A stretch of 64,000 bases of DNA. Origin: Escherichia phage JK1. The notes under the pieces were generated by a model. It ran no database searches and was not told the DNA's origin. It saw only the letters and a program-made list of their open reading frames with translations. The stretch is from the sequence record MZ436830.1; one strand, written 5' to 3'. The stretch's first letter is position 1, and each line of letters begins with the position of its first letter. A program made the position numbers and the translations under genes. Shown one piece after another: positions 5,927 to 25,683 of the stretch.

Positions 5927-6196
5927 TTATCTAAGTAAACAGTATGCTTGGAATACTTTCTCCATCATCTTTTTAAATTCATGAATATCTATATAATGAC
6001 TAGTTAGATCAGCATGATATAAAAAGTCTAAAAACTTTTCATGTGTACTAACATATTCACTTTCATTTAATTCAGAAACATGGCTTTCCCAATATCCAAC
6101 ACCAGTCTTATTTGGGAAAAATGAAATTTTCATGTATTGGTCAACATAGAAAATGCCATAATTTTCAATAGTAATAGAAATATTAATAAATTTCAT
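5927..6196 (-). CDS. Hypothetical protein (55.x region)
   Basis: 89 aa ORF. Confidence 0.4.
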   Translation of the reverse strand: MKFINISITIENYGIFYVDQYMKISFFPNKTGVGYWESHVSELNESEYVSTHEKFLDFLYHADLTSHYIDIHEFKKMMEKVFQAYCLLR

Positions 6197-6408
6197 ACAT
6201 TCATCAACTTAGCCGCTTCAAGAGCTGCATCTAGTGAATCAAATTGGTCAACGTATTCAATCAATTCGCCATAATTGGCATATAACCACCATTGGCTAAA
6301 TTCATACTCAAGGATGAATCCGTTTCCTTCAATTTGAGTTAAACCAATGCCATTTGTATTTACTTCATATCCAGCAAGACGCAAATCGTTAATAAGAGCT
6401 TCGTTCAT
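6193..6408 (-). CDS. Hypothetical small acidic protein (55.x region)
   Basis: 71 aa ORF; 4-nt overlap with the downstream ORF. Confidence 0.4.
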   Translation of the reverse strand: MNEALINDLRLAGYEVNTNGIGLTQIEGNGFILEYEFSQWWLYANYGELIEYVDQFDSLDAALEAAKLMNV

Positions 6409-6410
6409 AA

Positions 6411-6737
6411 TTATACCTTAGTAATTTTCAGGTCTGCAAATTTTTTCTTGCGTTGATTTTTCATGCGACGAATAGTTTTATCGGAAATTTCATGCTTTTG
6501 ATAAGCTTTAGATTCTACACCAAAAGCTTTAACATCAAATTCTGACAAGATATATTGAACCAACAATTCACGGACAGTATTGCGTCCAATCTTCTGATCA
6601 TTCTGTTTCATCGTTTGATGAAGCTCTTTTTCCCATTTATCCAAACTTTGAGGAGTTACAATATCGCCTTTTTCTAGCAAAGAAACTACTTTATCATATG
6701 CGTAAGAATTGATGGCGTTTTTAATTTGAATAGTCAT
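6411..6737 (-). CDS. Hypothetical protein (55.x region)
   Basis: 108 aa ORF. Confidence 0.45.
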   Translation of the reverse strand: MTIQIKNAINSYAYDKVVSLLEKGDIVTPQSLDKWEKELHQTMKQNDQKIGRNTVRELLVQYILSEFDVKAFGVESKAYQKHEISDKTIRRMKNQRKKKFADLKITKV

Positions 6738-17750: not shown

Positions 17751-18278
17751 TTATGCGAGTACCGTCTTTAACCGTTCTTCAAACTTCCGAAGAGTATTTT
17801 GGCGTTCAGCTCTTTGCTTTTTGTAAGTTTCAATACGCTCTGAAATGAGAGTGTATCGTTCATTTACTGATTCTTTCATAAAATCAGGAATTTCACGAGA
17901 AGCTTTAATCTCGTCAAATTTATCAATAACAGCTTGCTCTTCAGCAATTAAGTTATCATACATCAAAATATCTTTCTTGATGAACTCAATATCTTCTTGA
18001 GTTACGCGAGATAATTTAGATGCTTTATCCTTTTTGTACTGTTCGTTAGTATCACGAGACCAGTGTAATGTACGATTTTTATTCGTATTCTTATAAATTT
18101 CTACAATACCAATCTCATCAATAATAACGATCCAATTCCAACGGGATTTGTAAATTTGTCCTCCATCAACTGTGATTTCACCTCCGATTGAGATGTCATT
18201 AAAGAACTTGCTTTGTGCTTCAGATTTAAATTTACCATCGTTGTAATTTACCAAGTTGAAAATATCTTTAGCGTTCAT
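17751..18278 (-). CDS. Hypothetical protein
   Basis: 175 aa; early promoter motif directly upstream. Confidence 0.55.
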   Translation of the reverse strand: MNAKDIFNLVNYNDGKFKSEAQSKFFNDISIGGEITVDGGQIYKSRWNWIVIIDEIGIVEIYKNTNKNRTLHWSRDTNEQYKKDKASKLSRVTQEDIEFIKKDILMYDNLIAEEQAVIDKFDEIKASREIPDFMKESVNERYTLISERIETYKKQRAERQNTLRKFEERLKTVLA

Positions 18279-19825: not shown

Positions 19826-20839
19826 TCATTTATAATAACTTTGGTGGTTTTCAAGATAGACCTTCTCAAGGAAGTCATCCCAGAAACTCATGTCTACTGT
19901 TTTAGGCATACCATTCTTAGAAGCTTCAGTAGATGCTGCTTCTACTTGATCGACCACATCTTCCAAAAACTCTTGAACTGTTTTAAATGGATGTTTACCC
20001 AACTTCACGTCGAGAATAAATGGAGCATCTTGGAGTGGATAAATCAAGTCGCCAGTTTTGTAAATTTCCAATAGTTGAAGTCCACCACGACAAGCATGAC
20101 TTAGTGCTTTCCAATCAATACCTTCATTAGCTTCGGCTTTACGAGCACGTTCACCATATTCAGCATCTAATTTGTTCAGTGACTGCTTAAGCTCAATAAG
20201 AGAAAGCGTTGTCTGATATTTACGACCCAGCACTGTATAGAACGTTTGTGGACCTGTTTTCTCATGATTATGGAACACCCATTCACAGAATTCGTTTTCT
20301 GGAAGACGATGCTTAATATCTTCAACTTTAGTACGACGCTGCTTAATGGAACCGTCTTCTTGGTAATCAACCCATTGCTCAGGGATTTGATTAACTACTT
20401 TCAATACATCGCGTAATGCAGCCAAACGAGAACCCTTGACACCGTATTTAGAAGCTTGCTTGCGGACATATCCTAAATAGGATTTCATGTTAGTCGTATA
20501 AAAACGAGAACGGTTGTCTTGAATAAACTTCCACACATCAGGCAAATCAGATTTAACCACTAGTTTAGGTGGAGTATGAAGCATATCCAATGCTACAGTT
20601 TCACCATCTGCTGCTAATTTAAAGAAATATTTAAGACTGTATAGTTCATGGTCAATATCATCTTTAGTGTTTTTAGATGATGTATTGTTAGTATTTTTAC
20701 TCATATGCTCTTTAACATTTCCGACAAGAATATCGCGAGCAGGAGGAACAAAGATTTCTTTAAAATCTACATCAGATTCTGGGGTAGAAGTTCCATAAAG
20801 ATGACTACCAAAATAGCTTTTCATTACTGTTTTCATCAT
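19826..20839 (-). CDS. Hypothetical protein (T4 nrdC.11-like position)
   Basis: 337 aa ORF. Confidence 0.6.
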   Translation of the reverse strand: MMKTVMKSYFGSHLYGTSTPESDVDFKEIFVPPARDILVGNVKEHMSKNTNNTSSKNTKDDIDHELYSLKYFFKLAADGETVALDMLHTPPKLVVKSDLPDVWKFIQDNRSRFYTTNMKSYLGYVRKQASKYGVKGSRLAALRDVLKVVNQIPEQWVDYQEDGSIKQRRTKVEDIKHRLPENEFCEWVFHNHEKTGPQTFYTVLGRKYQTTLSLIELKQSLNKLDAEYGERARKAEANEGIDWKALSHACRGGLQLLEIYKTGDLIYPLQDAPFILDVKLGKHPFKTVQEFLEDVVDQVEAASTEASKNGMPKTVDMSFWDDFLEKVYLENHQSYYK

Positions 20840-21297
20840 TCAGCCTTATATTCAATAACAGGACATACTTTAGCTTTACGAGCTTTTAAAAATTCAACGA
20901 TAATCGATTTCTTGGGTTGAATAGGAGGTAAACCTTTATACGCCCTATCAATATTTTCTACGTGTAAAGCATAATCCTTTTTCCATTTATAATCTTTATA
21001 TTTTTCACGCAAATGTGCAGGAATAACAAATGAACCGATAATAAGTAAAACAACCAAAAGCGCAAGTATAAATGCCGATGGAAGAAGAGTCCATAAACTA
21101 CCGAAAATAAGCCAACGTTGTAGGCTTTCTGCACAAATAATTGTTAGCCCTACGAGTATAGCACACCCAAAAATAGAAACGAAAAATGTAGGAATGGCAA
21201 TAGACCAAAAATATGCGCATAGTGTCTTAGGTCGTTGCCATTCATCGTTAAACAATTTGAATAATTTATAGTGCCAAGAGTTTTCATTAATAATCAT
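20836..21297 (-). CDS. Membrane protein (multiple TM segments)
   Basis: 153 aa; hydrophobic stretches AIPTFFVSIFGCAILVGLTIICA and LLALLVVLLIIGSFVI. Confidence 0.55.
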   Translation of the reverse strand: MIINENSWHYKLFKLFNDEWQRPKTLCAYFWSIAIPTFFVSIFGCAILVGLTIICAESLQRWLIFGSLWTLLPSAFILALLVVLLIIGSFVIPAHLREKYKDYKWKKDYALHVENIDRAYKGLPPIQPKKSIIVEFLKARKAKVCPVIEYKAE

Positions 21298-21299
21298 AA

Positions 21300-21821
21300 T
21301 TATCCTTTCATTGAAGGCGTAACGGTTGTTAAATACTTAATCATAGCTTCAGCTTCTGATTTTGATAATGAAATTTCTCCATTGTTTTGACGAATAGAAA
21401 TAAAATCCGGATGACGGTCACCACCAGCTTTTAAAACACACATATAAGTATCAGTTTCACCTTCAATATTTGAAATGATTGAAGCAGTTCCACATGAATG
21501 TGGTTTTTGATAAATCAATGCAGCTTTTCTTCCGCCATTTGACTGCTCATAGGCTTTTAATACATCAAGCAAATCAGTTCTTTTATCAATAGCTAAAATG
21601 TTATTTTCATCTTCAATGTTAAATCCTTCGGATACTTCATAAAGCGTTACCCATAAATCACCAATGTCAATAACAGCATTTACTTTTCCACGGCTTTCAA
21701 GAGTATGACAAATTTTCTTGATTTCGTCATAACTCATTTTAATAATATCATCTCCTTGAATAAGGAAGATGTCATTTTTAAATTCAACACGAATTAAACC
21801 ACTTTCACTTGAAATAAACAT
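21300..21821 (-). CDS. Hypothetical protein, paralog of the following ORF
   Basis: 173 aa; C-terminus EAEAMIKYLTTVTPSMKG resembles that of 21828..22382. Confidence 0.5.
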   Translation of the reverse strand: MFISSESGLIRVEFKNDIFLIQGDDIIKMSYDEIKKICHTLESRGKVNAVIDIGDLWVTLYEVSEGFNIEDENNILAIDKRTDLLDVLKAYEQSNGGRKAALIYQKPHSCGTASIISNIEGETDTYMCVLKAGGDRHPDFISIRQNNGEISLSKSEAEAMIKYLTTVTPSMKG

Positions 21822-21827
21822 ATTTCC

Positions 21828-22382
21828 TCACTTTGAAATCATAGTTGGAATAACAGAATCAAGATAAGTCTTTAGTGCAATAGCTTCGTCTTTGGTAAAT
21901 GTGACAATATGTGCTCGAGAATCATCAATTTGGCGAACAAGTACGACATCGCCATCTTCATAAGAAGTCTTGACATCCAAAGTCGTAGTATAATTTGCAG
22001 CTACTGGATTAATAATGCTAGCACCACGATCTTTAGCCCATTGAAGTTTAGCCTTTTCGGGTGTTTCGACTGTTTCAGATTCCAAGAATTCTTTCACCTT
22101 GGCAACGAATGTTGCCCAATTGTTGATAGAAAGACACATAAATTCAGTTTCAATATTACCGCCGTAAAGGCCACGATAAAAACGAACTTGGAGGTCGCCT
22201 GTAATATTAGTTACACCGGTAACTCCTGAGGGAGCATAAGATAAAATCGCAGCCAGTTCCATAGGAAGAATAGTAATACTATCGTCTTCCTGCGTCAGAA
22301 CGTATACATTATCACGTTTTTCGATAACCAGGTCACCGAACAAATCAGTTGTTTCAATTACAGCTTTCATATTATTTACCAA
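21828..22382 (-). CDS. Hypothetical protein, paralog of the preceding ORF
   Basis: 184 aa; C-terminus EAIALKTYLDSVIPTMISK. Confidence 0.5.
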   Translation of the reverse strand: MVNNMKAVIETTDLFGDLVIEKRDNVYVLTQEDDSITILPMELAAILSYAPSGVTGVTNITGDLQVRFYRGLYGGNIETEFMCLSINNWATFVAKVKEFLESETVETPEKAKLQWAKDRGASIINPVAANYTTTLDVKTSYEDGDVVLVRQIDDSRAHIVTFTKDEAIALKTYLDSVIPTMISK

Positions 22383-22557
22383 TTAAAGTTTCAATATAAG
22401 AATCAAGATTTACTTTAGCTTCTTCCATAAGAGTTTTGTATTTAATCTTGTTAGCATGTCCGGAGAAAGCTGATTCATCAATAATTGTTGATGTATGAAC
22501 AGCTTTACTATACGTCTCAATTAATTCTCTTAATTTAAAAGCCTGCTCACTTGTCAT
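22372..22557 (-). CDS. Small helical protein, member of the xEQxxKLxELI paralog family
   Basis: 61 aa; MTSEQAFKLRELIETY N-terminus. Confidence 0.45.
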   Translation of the reverse strand: MTSEQAFKLRELIETYSKAVHTSTIIDESAFSGHANKIKYKTLMEEAKVNLDSYIETLIGK

Positions 22558-22689
22558 TACATACTCCTTTGAATCATATCAATAATATTGTTCACCAGAT
22601 TATAGGTAAACAAAGGATAATTATATTGAATCATCACATACACAACAAACAAAACTTTCATTCTCTTCTCCTTGGCAGTTGACAAGATT

Positions 22690-22719
22690 ACTATACCATA
22701 ACCTTGCCAACTTGTAAAC
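22690..22719 (-). promoter_or_regulatory. Early promoter-like motif (GTTTAC-N18-TATAGT)
   Basis: Plus gtaaac 22714-22719, actata 22690-22695. Confidence 0.35.
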
Positions 22720-22721
22720 CA

Positions 22722-22895
22722 TTAAATGACGTTTTCGATAAAATTCTGAAGCTTTGTATGAGCATCAACCATGATTTTCATTTCTTCCTTTGCGAAAGCT
22801 GTACCTCTTTCACGAGAAGAACATTCATAGTCAGAAACTGCATTAGCATATTCTTCAATTAGCTTCATTAAAAACATCTGCTTTTCAGTTTTCAT
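22722..22895 (-). CDS. Small helical protein, not in the ORF track; possible member of the same paralog family
   Basis: 57 aa read manually: MKTEKQMFLMKLIEEYANAV..; start overlaps the upstream ORF end (alternative ATG at 22877). Confidence 0.3.
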   Translation of the reverse strand: MKTEKQMFLMKLIEEYANAVSDYECSSRERGTAFAKEEMKIMVDAHTKLQNFIENVI

Positions 22896-23079
22896 TATTC
22901 CACCTAATCATTTCAAGATATTGAACTAACTTAGCTTTGGATTTATCCAAATCCTTTTTAGCTGCTTCTATACCGTCGTATGAATATCCTTCACAATGCT
23001 CAACTGCCAATTGATATGAATCTATTTCAATATCACGTGCTAATTTAATGATTTTTTCAAACTGTTCGCGTGTTAGCAT
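22885..23079 (-). CDS. Small helical protein, member of the xEQxxKLxELI paralog family
   Basis: 64 aa; MLTREQFEKIIKLARD N-terminus. Confidence 0.45.
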   Translation of the reverse strand: MLTREQFEKIIKLARDIEIDSYQLAVEHCEGYSYDGIEAAKKDLDKSKAKLVQYLEMIRWNNEN

Positions 23080-23081
23080 AA

Positions 23082-23321
23082 TTAAACTCTCGTATTATGA
23101 TCGATAATTTCATCAAGAAACATATCTAACGCTTCTAAAGCATTATCAACTTTAGTTTCAAAGTCTTTAATGCCTTTATTCGAAATACCCGATGAATACC
23201 AAGCAAAGTCAATCAGCTCTTCATCTGCTTTACGAATTGAAGCCACTAATTCCTTGATTTTATCTGCTTGCTCTATACTAATCATTATTCCACCACATAT
23301 GACAGAGAGAATATTGCACAC
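23082..23321 (-). CDS. Small helical protein, member of the same paralog family
   Basis: 79 aa ORF; internal start gives [17 protein letters not shown]. Confidence 0.45.
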
Positions 23322-23473
23322 GCCATGTGAGTTGCAACTTCATCACACATATTATAACGTTTCTTAAGAAATTCTACAAGTTCTTCACTAGTAACTTCAT
23401 CCATGTCGACGAAAAAATCACCATTAATGATGACGTAGATATTTCCTTCTTGATTGAGTGCTTCAATTTTCAT
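23285..23473 (-). CDS. Small acidic protein; start set at MKIEALNQ with GAGGAG ribosome-binding site
   Basis: The ORF-track start at 23518 lies upstream of the -10 element of the adjacent promoter, so the internal ATG at 23473 is preferred. Confidence 0.4.
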
Positions 23474-23501
23474 GATGTTCTCCTCTTTATCCGATAGTTG
23501 T

Positions 23502-23531
23502 ATAGTATCACAGCTCAAACGGAAAGTAAAC
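23502..23531 (-). promoter_or_regulatory. Early promoter (GTTTAC-N18-TACTAT) immediately downstream of a stem-loop
   Basis: Plus gtaaac 23526-23531, atagta 23502-23507. Confidence 0.5.
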
Positions 23532-23541
23532 CGGTAAAATG

Positions 23542-23564
23542 AAAAAAGTCTCCCGAAGGAGACT
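23542..23564 (-). terminator. Intrinsic terminator-like hairpin, C(UUCG)G loop plus U-run
   Basis: Plus agtctcc-cgaa-ggagact at 23547-23564, preceded by aaaaa. Confidence 0.5.
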
Positions 23565-23568
23565 AATG

Positions 23569-23955
23569 TTATTCGAGGGAAAGAAGATACTTACTCTGGT
23601 AAAACATCCCAGTAATATCATCTATCGTGCTTTGGATGGCTGGAGGCATTTCTTTATAAATGCTGTTAGATTGGTCTAGTATGCGATCAATCATTTTAAT
23701 TGTGTCGGTAGGAAGTTTACTGGCATCTGGAATTGAAGGTGTGTATTTTCTACCAGAATACCCCAAATATTGCTCACCAAATTTATCAATCAAATCTGGC
23801 AACTCGGAGAAAATAAAATCGTATGCTTTGTGTCTAGCATAACTTTTAGTTTCAAAATGTGCAGAATGAAAATAAGCTTGTGCAGCCATTAATAAACCTA
23901 AGTATTCATCTGCCTTTGAAGGTTTTCCACTTTGTGAAAAGTCGCTGAATTTCAT
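23569..23955 (-). CDS. Hypothetical protein (rI.-1-like position)
   Basis: 128 aa ORF immediately upstream of rI. Confidence 0.5.
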
Positions 23956-24245
23956 TCAGTCTCCAATTTAATGTTCATAATTCTAGCGTATGATTGTGCC
24001 ATCTCCGCGCCTCGTTCTATACATTCAAAATCAGAAGAGCACGGGTCATTTTTATAGGTCGTTCTCATAAAACTATAGAATTGTTCAGACGATTCTACGC
24101 TTTTATTTTCAAAAAGTGTATAAACGTGCCTAATACCAGATTCCATAAATTTATCAAAATGAGGATCGACATTCGCTTCAATCGATGGAGATAAAACAAA
24201 TGACAATCCTAGCATGGCAAATAGTGCCGTTGCTTTTAAGGCCAT
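23952..24245 (-). CDS. rI: Lysis-inhibition regulator RI (signal-anchored)
   Basis: 97 aa; MALKATALFAMLGLSFVLSPSIEANVDPHF matches T4 RI as I recall it. Confidence 0.8.
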   Translation of the reverse strand: MALKATALFAMLGLSFVLSPSIEANVDPHFDKFMESGIRHVYTLFENKSVESSEQFYSFMRTTYKNDPCSSDFECIERGAEMAQSYARIMNIKLETE

Positions 24246-24257
24246 AAAGGCCTCCTA

Positions 24258-24470
24258 TCATTTTTGTCCTGTATTTACTTTATGCCGATGCACGGCCTTA
24301 ACTTTATCAAGGTATTTTTCAAAATTTCGCAATCTAGTATAGTCTGCCGGAGATTGGTTGAGTGATACTTCTCGACGCAAAGCTGAAATAACATTTCCAA
24401 CTTCCCTACGAATTTCATCTAATTGAAGCACAGTAAGATTGCGAAGTTGCTTTTCAGTTAATTGTAGCAT
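24258..24470 (-). CDS. Hypothetical small protein (rI.1-like position)
   Basis: 70 aa ORF. Confidence 0.45.
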
Positions 24471-24512
24471 ATATACCCCTTTAGTTAGATAAACCTATTT
24501 ATAACTTTTGCA

Positions 24513-25094
24513 CTAACCGAGCTTTTTAGTTAATTCATTCCAATGTTTTCTACACAAAGAAACATAAATTTCATCACCAATACAGATTTGATTACCTTCT
24601 TTAACTGGTGTTCCATCTTCCATTAATCGAGCTGTCATAATCGCTTTTTTACCACAATGACAAACTGCTTTTAGTTCAATAAGTTTATCTGCAATCGCTA
24701 AAAGTTCTTTAGAACCTTCAAACAATTTTCCAGCGAAATCAGTCCTTAATCCATAAGCCATAACAGGAACATTATATGTATCAACAATTCGGCTCAATTG
24801 ATGCACTTGTTCAGTTTTTAAAAACTGAGCTTCATCTACAAATACGCAATGAATATCTTTTTGTGCTTCAGCCCATTTATAGAACTCGAAAATATCCATA
24901 TCATCTGTAATAATATTCGCTTCCTGTTTAATTCCAATGCGAGAAACAACTTCACAGACAGAATCGCGAGTATCAATAGCAGGCTTAAGAACTAATACAC
25001 TCATTCCACGTTCTTTATAATTATGTGCAGCAGTCAAAAGAGAAGCAGATTTTCCAGCATTCATTGCTGCATAAGTAAAAATTAAACTCGCCAT
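24513..25094 (-). CDS. tk: Thymidine kinase
   Basis: 193 aa; P-loop AMNAGKS; C-terminal Cys cluster CHCGKK..C..C. Confidence 0.9.
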   Translation of the reverse strand: MASLIFTYAAMNAGKSASLLTAAHNYKERGMSVLVLKPAIDTRDSVCEVVSRIGIKQEANIITDDMDIFEFYKWAEAQKDIHCVFVDEAQFLKTEQVHQLSRIVDTYNVPVMAYGLRTDFAGKLFEGSKELLAIADKLIELKAVCHCGKKAIMTARLMEDGTPVKEGNQICIGDEIYVSLCRKHWNELTKKLG

Positions 25095-25103
25095 ATCACC
25101 TTC

Positions 25104-25289
25104 TTAAAGCGTATTCACATAAGCTATTAATTCATTTTCTTTCTTATCAAACAGATCAGCAAATTCTTCCTGCTGTTCAGGAGATAGCGGGCCGTATTCA
25201 TCATAAAAGGTGTTTGCTTCTGTATGCTCATCTAGAAGTTCATGGATAAGCTCAAACAATTTATCTTTTTGTTCTTTACTCAGACTCAT
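25104..25289 (-). CDS. Small helical acidic protein, xEQxxKLxELI family-like
   Basis: 61 aa; MSLSKEQKDKLFELIHELL. Confidence 0.45.
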   Translation of the reverse strand: MSLSKEQKDKLFELIHELLDEHTEANTFYDEYGPLSPEQQEEFADLFDKKENELIAYVNTL

Positions 25290-25455
25290 ATATTAATTTC
25301 CAGGAGTTTTAAGATAATTCGCTTTTGCTTAAATATTTCCATCGTTAAATGATCAATATCTTTTTGACCAATTCCAATAGCAAAACCCTTATTTACGGCA
25401 AGTTCAATTAAATTATCAATATTGCGTAAAACTTCATAACGTAACTCAAAATTAT

Positions 25456-25683
25456 TCATTTTGGTTCACCTTCTTTAACGAAATCAGGATAAGGATAAAA
25501 TCCTGAATAAAATCCTTCACCTTTATGATTGATGCATCCTTTATTAGAACAATAGCACCAATAATCGAAATCACAAGCCATTTCATCGTTGCATAAAGCA
25601 AAAACAACCGGCCACTTACACTTTTCACAGTGGGCATTTTTAAGAATACTAGTTTGGCTCATAACCATGTAACCTTTAAGCAA
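25456..25683 (-). CDS. Small Cys-rich (putative zinc-binding) protein
   Basis: 75 aa with 8 Cys, including CEKCKW and CYCSNKGC. Confidence 0.45.
   Translation of the reverse strand: MLKGYMVMSQTSILKNAHCEKCKWPVVFALCNDEMACDFDYWCYCSNKGCINHKGEGFYSGFYPYPDFVKEGEPK

Follow-up and report, generated by a model that had tools for sequence, protein, structure and literature searches.

Five small open reading frames (ORFs) of Escherichia phage JK1 form one old paralogous family, and profile comparisons of their sequences show that they share a common ancestor. The family is already known: it is catalogued as Pfam DUF7438, to which Pfam assigns no function, so the finding is the re-identification of a catalogued family and reveals no new system. 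The phage is a Tequatrovirus (T4-like), and the window, by which we mean the whole 64,000-nucleotide stretch of its DNA that was analysed (MZ436830.1), carries all five ORFs on the minus strand at the coordinates given below. The initial annotation had described a paralogous family of small helical proteins, and in this it is backed by Pfam, by the profile tests and by two AlphaFold models. It had also placed four members in tandem at 22372-23321. Four do lie there, but a non-family ORF of 34 aa (22557-22661, mobD.2) interrupts them.

22372..22557, minus strand: 61-aa DUF7438 member of phrog_4859, here called X61; Pfam 57.8 bits
22557..22661, minus strand: 34-aa hydrophobic ORF, a non-member between two members; T4 mobD.2 orthologue by translation and alignment
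22690..22718, minus strand: sigma-70-like promoter match (10/12) between mobD.2a and the 34-aa ORF
22722..22895, minus strand: 57-aa DUF7438 member, T4 mobD.2a orthologue; Pfam 56.5 bits
22885..23079, minus strand: 64-aa DUF7438 member, T4 mobD.3 orthologue; Pfam 64.1 bits
23082..23285, minus strand: 67-aa DUF7438 member, T4 mobD.4 orthologue; Pfam 58.9 bits
23285..23473, minus strand: mobD.5 orthologue, a non-member; first gene of the mobD.5-mobD.4-mobD.3-mobD.2a string
23496..23564, minus strand: intrinsic-terminator-like hairpin (23564-23547, terminator scan) after rI.-1, then the homologue of the T4 mobD.5 early promoter
25104..25289, minus strand: 61-aa strongly acidic (pI 4.2) DUF7438 member, T4 tk.2 orthologue; Pfam 68.3 bits

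Common ancestry of the five proteins

Each of the five proteins matches PF24219 (DUF7438) end to end, covering positions 1-56 or 1-57 of the 57-position model. The scores, 56.5-68.3 bits with E-values of 4e-15 to 7e-19, exceed the gathering cutoff of 25 bits. Direct pairwise similarity in phmmer is weak (E about 0.01 to 40), so the motif from which the family was first proposed would not alone prove homology; since this comparison was too weak to decide the matter, profile tests were used. Subfamily alignments compared with hhalign gave co-linear, near full-length matches: mobD.4 with mobD.3 at P=2.3e-5 (58 columns), X61 (22372..22557) with mobD.2a at P=1.1e-4 (57 columns), and the tk-adjacent ORF with mobD.4 at P=2.5e-4 and with mobD.3 at P=4.5e-4. 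The best of 20 reversed-sequence controls reached only P=0.08. In addition, HMMs were built with one subfamily left out each time, from sequences that all had below 35% identity with the member left out. Among the 920 ORFs of the window these models found the left-out members at E=6.7e-8, 5.5e-5, 7.3e-10, 4.3e-11 and 1.7e-9, always at rank 5 after the other four, while the best of the other 915 ORFs had an E-value of at least 0.023. The family counts exactly five members in the 64-kb window, the next best ORF (E 0.037) belonging to DUF5495. The ORF at 6196-6417, considered as an extra member, was rejected as DUF5495.

The weak phmmer values (0.01 to 40) could be taken to mean that the resemblance is only helical or compositional bias among unrelated small ORFs, but this reading is refuted by the full-length DUF7438 match in all five, by hhalign (P 2e-5 to 5e-4, whereas reversed controls gave 0.08 or worse) and by the leave-one-out models (E 5e-5 to 4e-11, against 0.02 at best for the other 915 ORFs), and we give it practically no credence. 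The C-terminal helix motif that had been claimed as common to the family also holds in the family alignment, with 95% conservation of L54 and a hydrophobic residue in 98-100% of cases at positions 57, 58 and 61.

Gene context, names and distribution

Translational coupling is tight within the early gene strings on both sides of the rI-tk block. X61 has an AGGAG ribosome-binding site, and its ATG forms a TAATG overlap with the stop codon upstream; nothing in the T4 alignment corresponds to this ORF, and its presence or absence is polymorphic among Tequatroviruses. The 34-aa mobD.2 orthologue has an AAGGAG site, and the putative promoter at 22690..22718 (TTTACA, 17-nt spacer, TATAGT, upstream TG) is the best promoter-like site in the region. 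The mobD.2a orthologue starts 11 nt inside the 3' end of mobD.3 and has an AGGTGG site. A 1-bp deletion reduces T4 mobD.2a to 38 aa in NC_000866; the window copy is intact, and in the resequenced T4 of the HIDEN-SEQ annotation the gene has its full 174 bp, the frameshift being absent. The mobD.3 orthologue, with counterparts in T4 and Gaprivervirus VR26, has a CEGYSY loop motif kept across genera. All five ORFs exist, but their lengths had been put at 57-79 aa, and the ORF called at 79 aa from GTG 23321, the mobD.4 orthologue, should instead start at ATG 23285 and encode 67 aa; this start forms a TAATG overlap with the mobD.5 stop. In T4 a 21-bp in-frame deletion in the loop shortens MobD.4 to 60 aa, the window loop being 7 residues longer. 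The region 23496..23564 upstream of mobD.5 is 98% identical to T4, and the hexamers there match the consensus only weakly. Neither the mobD.2 orthologue (22557..22661) nor the mobD.5 orthologue (23285..23473) has a match in Pfam.

On the other side of the block, comparison with both T4 genes identifies the tk-adjacent ORF (25104..25289) as the orthologue of tk.2 and not of tk.1. It lies directly upstream of tk, which starts 9 nt downstream, and has an ATGA start/stop overlap with the ORF upstream of it. The window allele shares only about 57% identity with that of T4 and is closer to a Gaprivervirus allele. Compared with T4, the cassette on the tk side has been exchanged, with the switch precisely at the stop codon of tk, where identity falls from 97-100% to 21-48%. 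T4 tk.1, which is absent from the window, also matches DUF7438 end to end above the cutoff and represents a sixth paralogue type; X61 and tk.1 are both present or absent depending on the phage.

Public names for these genes are of little help. PHROGs divides this single homologous family among three groups, with mobD.3, mobD.4 and tk.2 in phrog_653, X61 in phrog_4859 and mobD.2a in phrog_2758, and weak cross-hits between them. The label "helicase loader" given to X61 in RefSeq and PHROG (phrog_4859) is unsupported: the sole Pfam family above cutoff is DUF7438, not a loader of the T4 gp59 or DnaC/AAA+ type, there is no NCBIfam match, and what a phage of 97% identity has annotated as "DNA helicase loader" is another gene, 654 bp long (X61 has only 61 aa). 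The RefSeq label "MobD molybdopterin..." on mobD.4 is also unsupported, as neither Pfam nor NCBIfam gives a match to molybdopterin-guanine dinucleotide biosynthesis; it probably stems from confusion of the T4 gene name mobD.4 with bacterial mob genes. NCBIfam holds no names for family members, and in a full-text literature search mobD.2a, mobD.3, mobD.4, tk.1, tk.2 and DUF7438 occurred in the main text of no paper.

Copy number varies, from 6 in O157 typing phage 7 and 5 in T4 to 3 in a Mosigvirus and 2 in a Gaprivervirus, and orthologue groups are retained across several genera. Outside these phages, the Pfam DUF7438 cutoff is passed by IME11_78, which lies in the early region at the left end of IME11, an N4-like phage. 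HMMER, run exhaustively against 1.84 billion representatives, returned only 35 matches at E<=1e-3, none of them an informative domain fusion; two long multi-stretch matches (P0121, P0128) we assume to be repetitive helical proteins, and P0143 has an unannotated C-terminal extension. A 74-aa ORF of NBEco003 (L011:33377-33598, MISWHQFEHLKGLI...DLHDYIQSL) and gene0045 of Aeromonas phage 13AC503A gave no Pfam match and are possibly distant relatives only.

Predicted fold, selection and expression

AlphaFold2 predicts a helical hairpin for X61 (helices at residues 3-28 and 34-59, pLDDT 94) and for the tk.2 orthologue (residues 5-32 and 37-60, pLDDT 89). Two divergent paralogues are in this way predicted with high confidence to take the same two-helix hairpin of about 60 residues. 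Only the stripe of hydrophobic residues along each helix and a T-x-E-Q cap at the N-terminus are conserved. Paralogues differ in their exposed residues, in charge and in the length of the loop, and these soluble proteins range from neutral to strongly acidic (pI 4.2 to 6.1; pI 4.4 and net charge -7 for the mobD.4 orthologue, pI 4.2 and -11 for that of tk.2). The hydrophobic faces are wide (positions 11/12/14/15/18 and 54/57/58/61), and in the modelled fold this may allow DUF7438 proteins to pack into a four-helix bundle. Fold searches of the PDB and of viral predicted structures yielded nothing beyond generic hairpins and uncharacterised proteins of phages (best PDB E 0.39), and a profile search of PDB sequences gave no match. 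Identity with a histidine-kinase DHp domain (HisKA) was considered and rejected: the DHp of HK853 is among the top Foldseek matches, but at E 0.39 or worse, and no HisKA match is found at E<=1. A motif resembling the kinase H-box, LIHE(L/V), is confined to the tk.2 group; its histidine is present in 31% of the family alignment, which we read as the tk.2-group sequences.

All five ORFs are under purifying selection, with dN/dS of 0.05-0.25 (X61, 0.24; mobD.2a, 0.05-0.13; mobD.3, 0.05-0.22; mobD.4, 0.10-0.14; tk.2, 0.05-0.25). Within tk.2 the hairpin base (omega 0.02-0.22) is far more constrained than the loop-proximal half (0.2-0.57), where positive selection was sought and omega did not exceed 1. 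Pairwise dN/dS was never above 1, and thus does not directly point to an arms race.

The genes had been described as early, and this agrees with what is known of T4, whose orthologues have early RNA (PMC9697503 supplements) and whose mobD.5 promoter gives a primer-extension stop 3 min after infection (PMC1702504). Translation of such small ORFs, which the initial annotation had left to be confirmed, is supported by the dN/dS of 0.05-0.25 in the window and by mass spectrometry of T4 infection, in which MobD.3, MobD.4, Tk.1 and Tk.2 were detected, MobD.3 and MobD.4 early (PMC9697503 supplements). The T4 orthologues are dispensable in the laboratory: CRISPRi-ART knock-down scored them "Not Fit", with no fitness phenotype in E. 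coli K-12, and transposon disruption (HIDEN-SEQ) found the orthologues non-essential in T4 and Bas37 in the same host. The two HIDEN-SEQ conditional tables examined show no depletion of family genes, and the text of that paper does not name them among the conditionally essential ones.

Possible roles and related systems

From context, and in line with the host-takeover or anti-defence role suggested in the initial annotation, we infer that the likeliest role of these proteins is that of small protein-binding accessory factors in host takeover or counter-defence. Since conservation is confined to the core and the surfaces diverge, the hairpin is most likely a scaffold that pairs with other helices. 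As a minimal scaffold it could do so in a four-helix bundle, as a homodimer or a heterodimer, or it could dock onto a partner; a different partner for each paralogue would then be inhibited or retuned in the host, and the resulting takeover or counter-defence would matter only in particular hosts or conditions. That the genes are real, translated, early accessory genes encoding such a hairpin, with paralogues directed at different partners, is the best explanation we can offer, and we give it about an even chance of being right. Counter-defence genes do occur in the same early block (e.g. T4 nrdC.1, which inhibits Septu, and bas37_0203, which inhibits Druantia III); bas37_0203, a 175-aa gene of the nrdC block, is not a member of the family. 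The more specific proposal that each paralogue, alone or in mixed four-helix-bundle dimers, neutralises a different host protein is rather unlikely in our estimation. If it were true, redundancy among five or six co-expressed copies would leave single-gene screens with nothing to see. More narrowly, the tk.2 group, whose LIHE(L/V) helix is invariant, could mimic a histidine-kinase dimerisation hairpin and disturb two-component signalling of the host.

The partners may instead lie within the phage, with the proteins acting as regulators or adaptors that tune rI-operon lysis inhibition or a thymidine kinase/nucleotide-metabolism complex. The rI.-1/rI/rI.1/tk block has one of the two clusters on either side, translation of tk.2 is coupled to that of tk, and small accessory proteins of the rI operon modulate lysis inhibition (PMC2962797). 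Members are gained and lost, however, while rI and tk stay 97-100% identical; knock-down has no fitness phenotype; and the IME11 member sits among early left-end genes, with no rI or tk annotated in the stretch examined around it. We consider this reading unlikely. Binding of nucleic acid by Rop-like four-helix bundles, or blocking of host DNA-binding proteins by acidic DNA mimics, is more doubtful still. The structural neighbours include Rop variants and FrmR-type hairpins (TM about 0.8, E about 3), and the orthologues of mobD.4 and tk.2 have a strongly acidic character (pI 4.4 and 4.2; charge -7 and -11), but those structural matches are not significant, no solved structure is matched in sequence, and no basic or acidic surface is conserved family-wide, X61 and mobD.2a being near neutral. 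Finally, it is highly improbable that the genes are without current function, whether as dispensable filler or as passengers of mobile cassettes beside homing endonucleases. Their non-essentiality in two screens, their presence/absence polymorphism, the adjoining mobD homing-endonuclease site and the frameshifted mobD.2a of the T4 reference might suggest this, but against it stand the dN/dS of 0.05-0.25 in all five, orthologue groups kept across several genera, proteins made in infection and a resequenced T4 without the frameshift.

A large share of the early genes of T-even phages encode tiny proteins without known function, and DUF7438 adds two to six of them per genome. The reading of one scaffold with diversified surfaces points to the deletion of all copies together, and the analysis corrects misleading public annotations. 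Among known systems, Rop/ROM of ColE1 and other helical-hairpin dimers (DHp, FrmR) are similar to DUF7438 members in size and two-helix topology, but none of them has a significant structural or sequence match to the family (the best Foldseek E is 0.39 and no sequence in the PDB is matched; the Rop mutant 4do2 gives an E of 3.6, with TM 0.77-0.82 and 14% identity). The small early takeover and counter-defence proteins of T-even phages (nrdC.1 against Septu, Dmd, AsiA) show no homology to DUF7438 members and are like them in size, early expression, dispensability in the laboratory and plastic early location. T4 itself differs from the window in being without X61, in having tk.1, in its shorter mobD.4 loop and in the cut mobD.2a of NC_000866, but its mobD.2a, mobD.3, mobD.4 and tk.2 are positional and sequence orthologues of four of the window ORFs, with gene order and coupled junctions alike.

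The DUF7438 family in the mobD-tk region

Many Tequatrovirus (T4-like) genomes share 97-98% identity with the window over the 3.7 kb around the five ORFs, and the window keeps the T4 gene order, from nrdC.11 through mobD.1-mobD.5, rI.-1, rI, rI.1, tk and tk.1-tk.4 to vs, all on the minus strand. The ORFs are named here by their T4 orthologues, except X61, which has none.

Family ORFs in the window
22372-22557, minus strand: X61, 61 aa, no T4 orthologue
22722-22895, minus strand: mobD.2a orthologue, 57 aa
22885-23079, minus strand: mobD.3 orthologue, 64 aa
23082-23285, minus strand: mobD.4 orthologue, 67 aa
25104-25289, minus strand: tk.2 orthologue, 61 aa, adjoining tk

Translation of the T4 genes ruled out X61 as mobD.2 and the tk-adjacent ORF as tk.1. 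The mobD.2 orthologue is a 34-aa hydrophobic ORF (22557-22661, minus strand, beginning MKVLFVVYVMIQYNYP) with a strong AAGGAG ribosome-binding site; upstream of it lies the region's best sigma-70-like match, a promoter-like site at 22690-22718. A metagenomic protein (P0028) fuses this ORF to mobD.2a and carries PF26864.

All five proteins score 56-68 bits against the curated Pfam family DUF7438 (PF24219; cutoff 25), each match covering the 57-position model end to end. The family is thus already known, and its T4 orthologues have long been annotated. Misleading product names have propagated in RefSeq: neither "helicase loader" for the X61 type (NC_055831, L001 2073-2258) nor [quoted passage not shown] for mobD.4 (L001 2783-2986; NC_000866) has Pfam or NCBIfam support, and both names failed all the tests applied.

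PHROGs divides the five among phrog_653, phrog_4859 and phrog_2758, with weak cross-matches. Since direct pairwise similarity is marginal, paralogy was tested by two Pfam-independent routes. In profile-profile comparison the five orthologue alignments were co-linear over 47-58 columns (P 2e-5 to 5e-4), against a best P of 0.08 for 20 reversed sequences that keep composition and helicity; the similarity therefore goes beyond compositional bias. For each protein in turn, an HMM was built without any family sequence of 35% or more identity to it; these HMMs found the omitted protein among all 920 six-frame window ORFs at E 5.5e-5 to 4.3e-11, always directly behind the other four, the best other ORF reaching E=0.023. 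Pfam and both routes thus agree with the initial annotation that the five ORFs form one paralogous family. Searched with a broad family HMM, the 64-kb window has these five members and no more; the ORF at 6196-6417, a repeated near-miss, is a DUF5495 protein and was rejected as a sixth.

Coupling, expression and exchange of the genes

The junctions between family ORFs and their neighbours are typical of coupled phage genes: TAATG joins mobD.5 to mobD.4 and the 34-aa ORF to X61, 2 nt separate mobD.4 from mobD.3, mobD.3 and mobD.2a overlap by 11 nt, and tk.2 has ATGA at its upstream junction and is followed by the tk start after 9 nt. The mobD.5/mobD.4 junction fixes ATG 23285, not GTG 23321, as the mobD.4 start, which gives this member 67 aa. 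In T4, a promoter upstream of mobD.5 is active by 3 min post-infection (PMC1702504), and over the corresponding stretch the window shares 98% identity with T4. In the RNA-seq and proteomics supplements of PMC9697503, T4 mobD.2a, mobD.3, mobD.4, tk.1 and tk.2 all have early RNA; the protein is early for mobD.3 and mobD.4, middle for tk.1 and tk.2, and not detected for mobD.2a.

Among 5.8 billion proteins a word-indexed search gave 119 matches, all assignable to five orthologue groups and all but a 42-aa fragment (P0114) carrying PF24219; HMMER, run exhaustively over 1.84 billion representatives, gave only 35. T4 tk.1 represents a sixth orthologue type (55.6 bits). Copies found number six in O157 typing phage 7, five each in the window and T4, three in Mosigvirus (NicPhage) and two in Gaprivervirus (VR26), and X61 comes and goes among otherwise near-identical Tequatroviruses. 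Outside Straboviridae, the N4-like phage IME11 has a member (51 bits, above the Pfam cutoff) among its early left-end genes. No additional members were found in other early regions of one 97%-identical genome. In NC_055831, a 74-aa ORF that follows the spanin genes (L011 33377-33598, plus strand), beginning MISWHQFEHLKGLI and ending DLHDYIQSLVEK, aligns weakly with the two ends of the family HMM (E 0.07) and matches nothing in Pfam. It is a possible distant relative whose middle section is longer.

In T4 NC_000866 a 1-bp deletion shortens mobD.2a to 38 aa (L002 3050-3166, aligned to window 22722-22895). Because the gene is intact (57 aa) in the window and many relatives, and is 174 bp without the deletion in resequenced T4 (transposon-screen annotation), the NC_000866 copy is a strain variant or sequencing error.

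Identity to T4 is 97-100% from mobD.5 through tk. Precisely at the tk stop codon it drops to 21-48%, and in tk.3, a DUF7202 match, it is back at 98%. The sharp drop indicates a swapped cassette (25099-25682), occupied in T4 by tk.1 and tk.2, and in the window by a divergent tk.2 allele, closer to that of a Gaprivervirus than to T4's, and two other ORFs.

Other ORFs of the cassette
25286-25459: 57-aa ORF, no Pfam match
about 25456-25662: "Phage zinc binding domain" ORF (PF23895)

At the other end of the region, T4 has one mobD.1 copy plus the homing endonuclease mobD, whereas the window has two tandem mobD.1 paralogues (21300-21821 and 21828-22382, both minus strand; y05I-like "putative transcription factor", PF24449 and PF24448) and no mobD. 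In place of mobD, the extra y05I copy is joined by a 153-aa ORF (20836-21297) that looks hydrophobic by eye.

A predicted hairpin and its possible role

AlphaFold2, run with family alignments on two divergent paralogues, predicts the same helix-loop-helix hairpin for the tk.2 orthologue (helices 5-32 and 37-60, pLDDT 89) and X61 (3-28 and 34-59, pLDDT 94), in line with the small helical proteins originally proposed. Conservation is essentially limited to the hydrophobic stripe of each helix (positions 3, 11, 12, 14, 15, 18, 25 and 47, 54, 57, 58, 61) and to a T-x-E-Q cap at the N-terminus. Paralogues differ in charge, in surface residues and in how long the loop is, with pI values of 6.1, 5.3, 5.0, 4.4 and 4.2. 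In tk.2, omega is 0.02-0.22 at the tightly constrained hairpin base and 0.2-0.57 in the relaxed loop-proximal half, never above 1.

We propose that the hairpin would act as a minimal protein-protein interaction module, dimeric or docking onto a target's helices, that each paralogue may have a different partner, and that the outcome would be host takeover or counter-defence, relevant in some hosts only. The genes are early, dispensable, copy-variable and exchanged between phages, the hairpin they encode is conserved only in its core, and the hydrophobic face of each helix is wider than a lone hairpin needs; the model fits these features. We give this general model about an even chance, and counter-defence specifically a lower one; the functional reading in the initial annotation, host takeover or anti-defence, is reasonable but unproven. 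T4 mobD.2a, mobD.3, mobD.4, tk.1 and tk.2 all scored "Not Fit" in CRISPRi-ART knock-down and were non-essential in transposon mutagenesis (91-100% of TA sites hit), as were the Bas37 genes at corresponding positions; two conditional tables of the transposon study show no depletion of family genes. Redundancy among paralogues might mask single-gene phenotypes. A phage-internal role around rI and tk seems unlikely. Nucleic-acid binding or DNA mimicry is more doubtful still. That the genes are filler without function is highly improbable, dN/dS against orthologues being 0.05-0.25 in all five, which indicates purifying selection. Similarity by chance is refuted.

In the adjoining nrdC block, the same transposon study found counter-defence genes, T4 nrdC.1 against Septu and bas37_0203, reported in a 2025 preprint as a Druantia type III inhibitor, making this early region rich in counter-defence factors. 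The 175-aa bas37_0203 is unrelated to DUF7438 and was rejected as a member; a 175-aa window ORF (17751-18278, minus strand) equals it in length and in its spacing and placement with respect to nrdC.11, which makes it a candidate orthologue by layout. Among structures, Foldseek against viral predictions returned uncharacterised phage proteins only, a profile search of PDB sequences gave no match, and Foldseek against the PDB gave generic hairpins, none significant (best E 0.39), including histidine-kinase DHp domains, Rop and FrmR. No HisKA match to the tk.2 orthologue was found in Pfam. The top PDB matches of tk.2 were to the DHp hairpin of HK853 (23-25% identity, E 0.39, not significant), and helix 1 of the tk.2 group keeps LIHE(L/V) invariant from genus to genus (residues 14-18 of the window protein); the likeness to the histidine-kinase DHp hairpin is only a weak lead.
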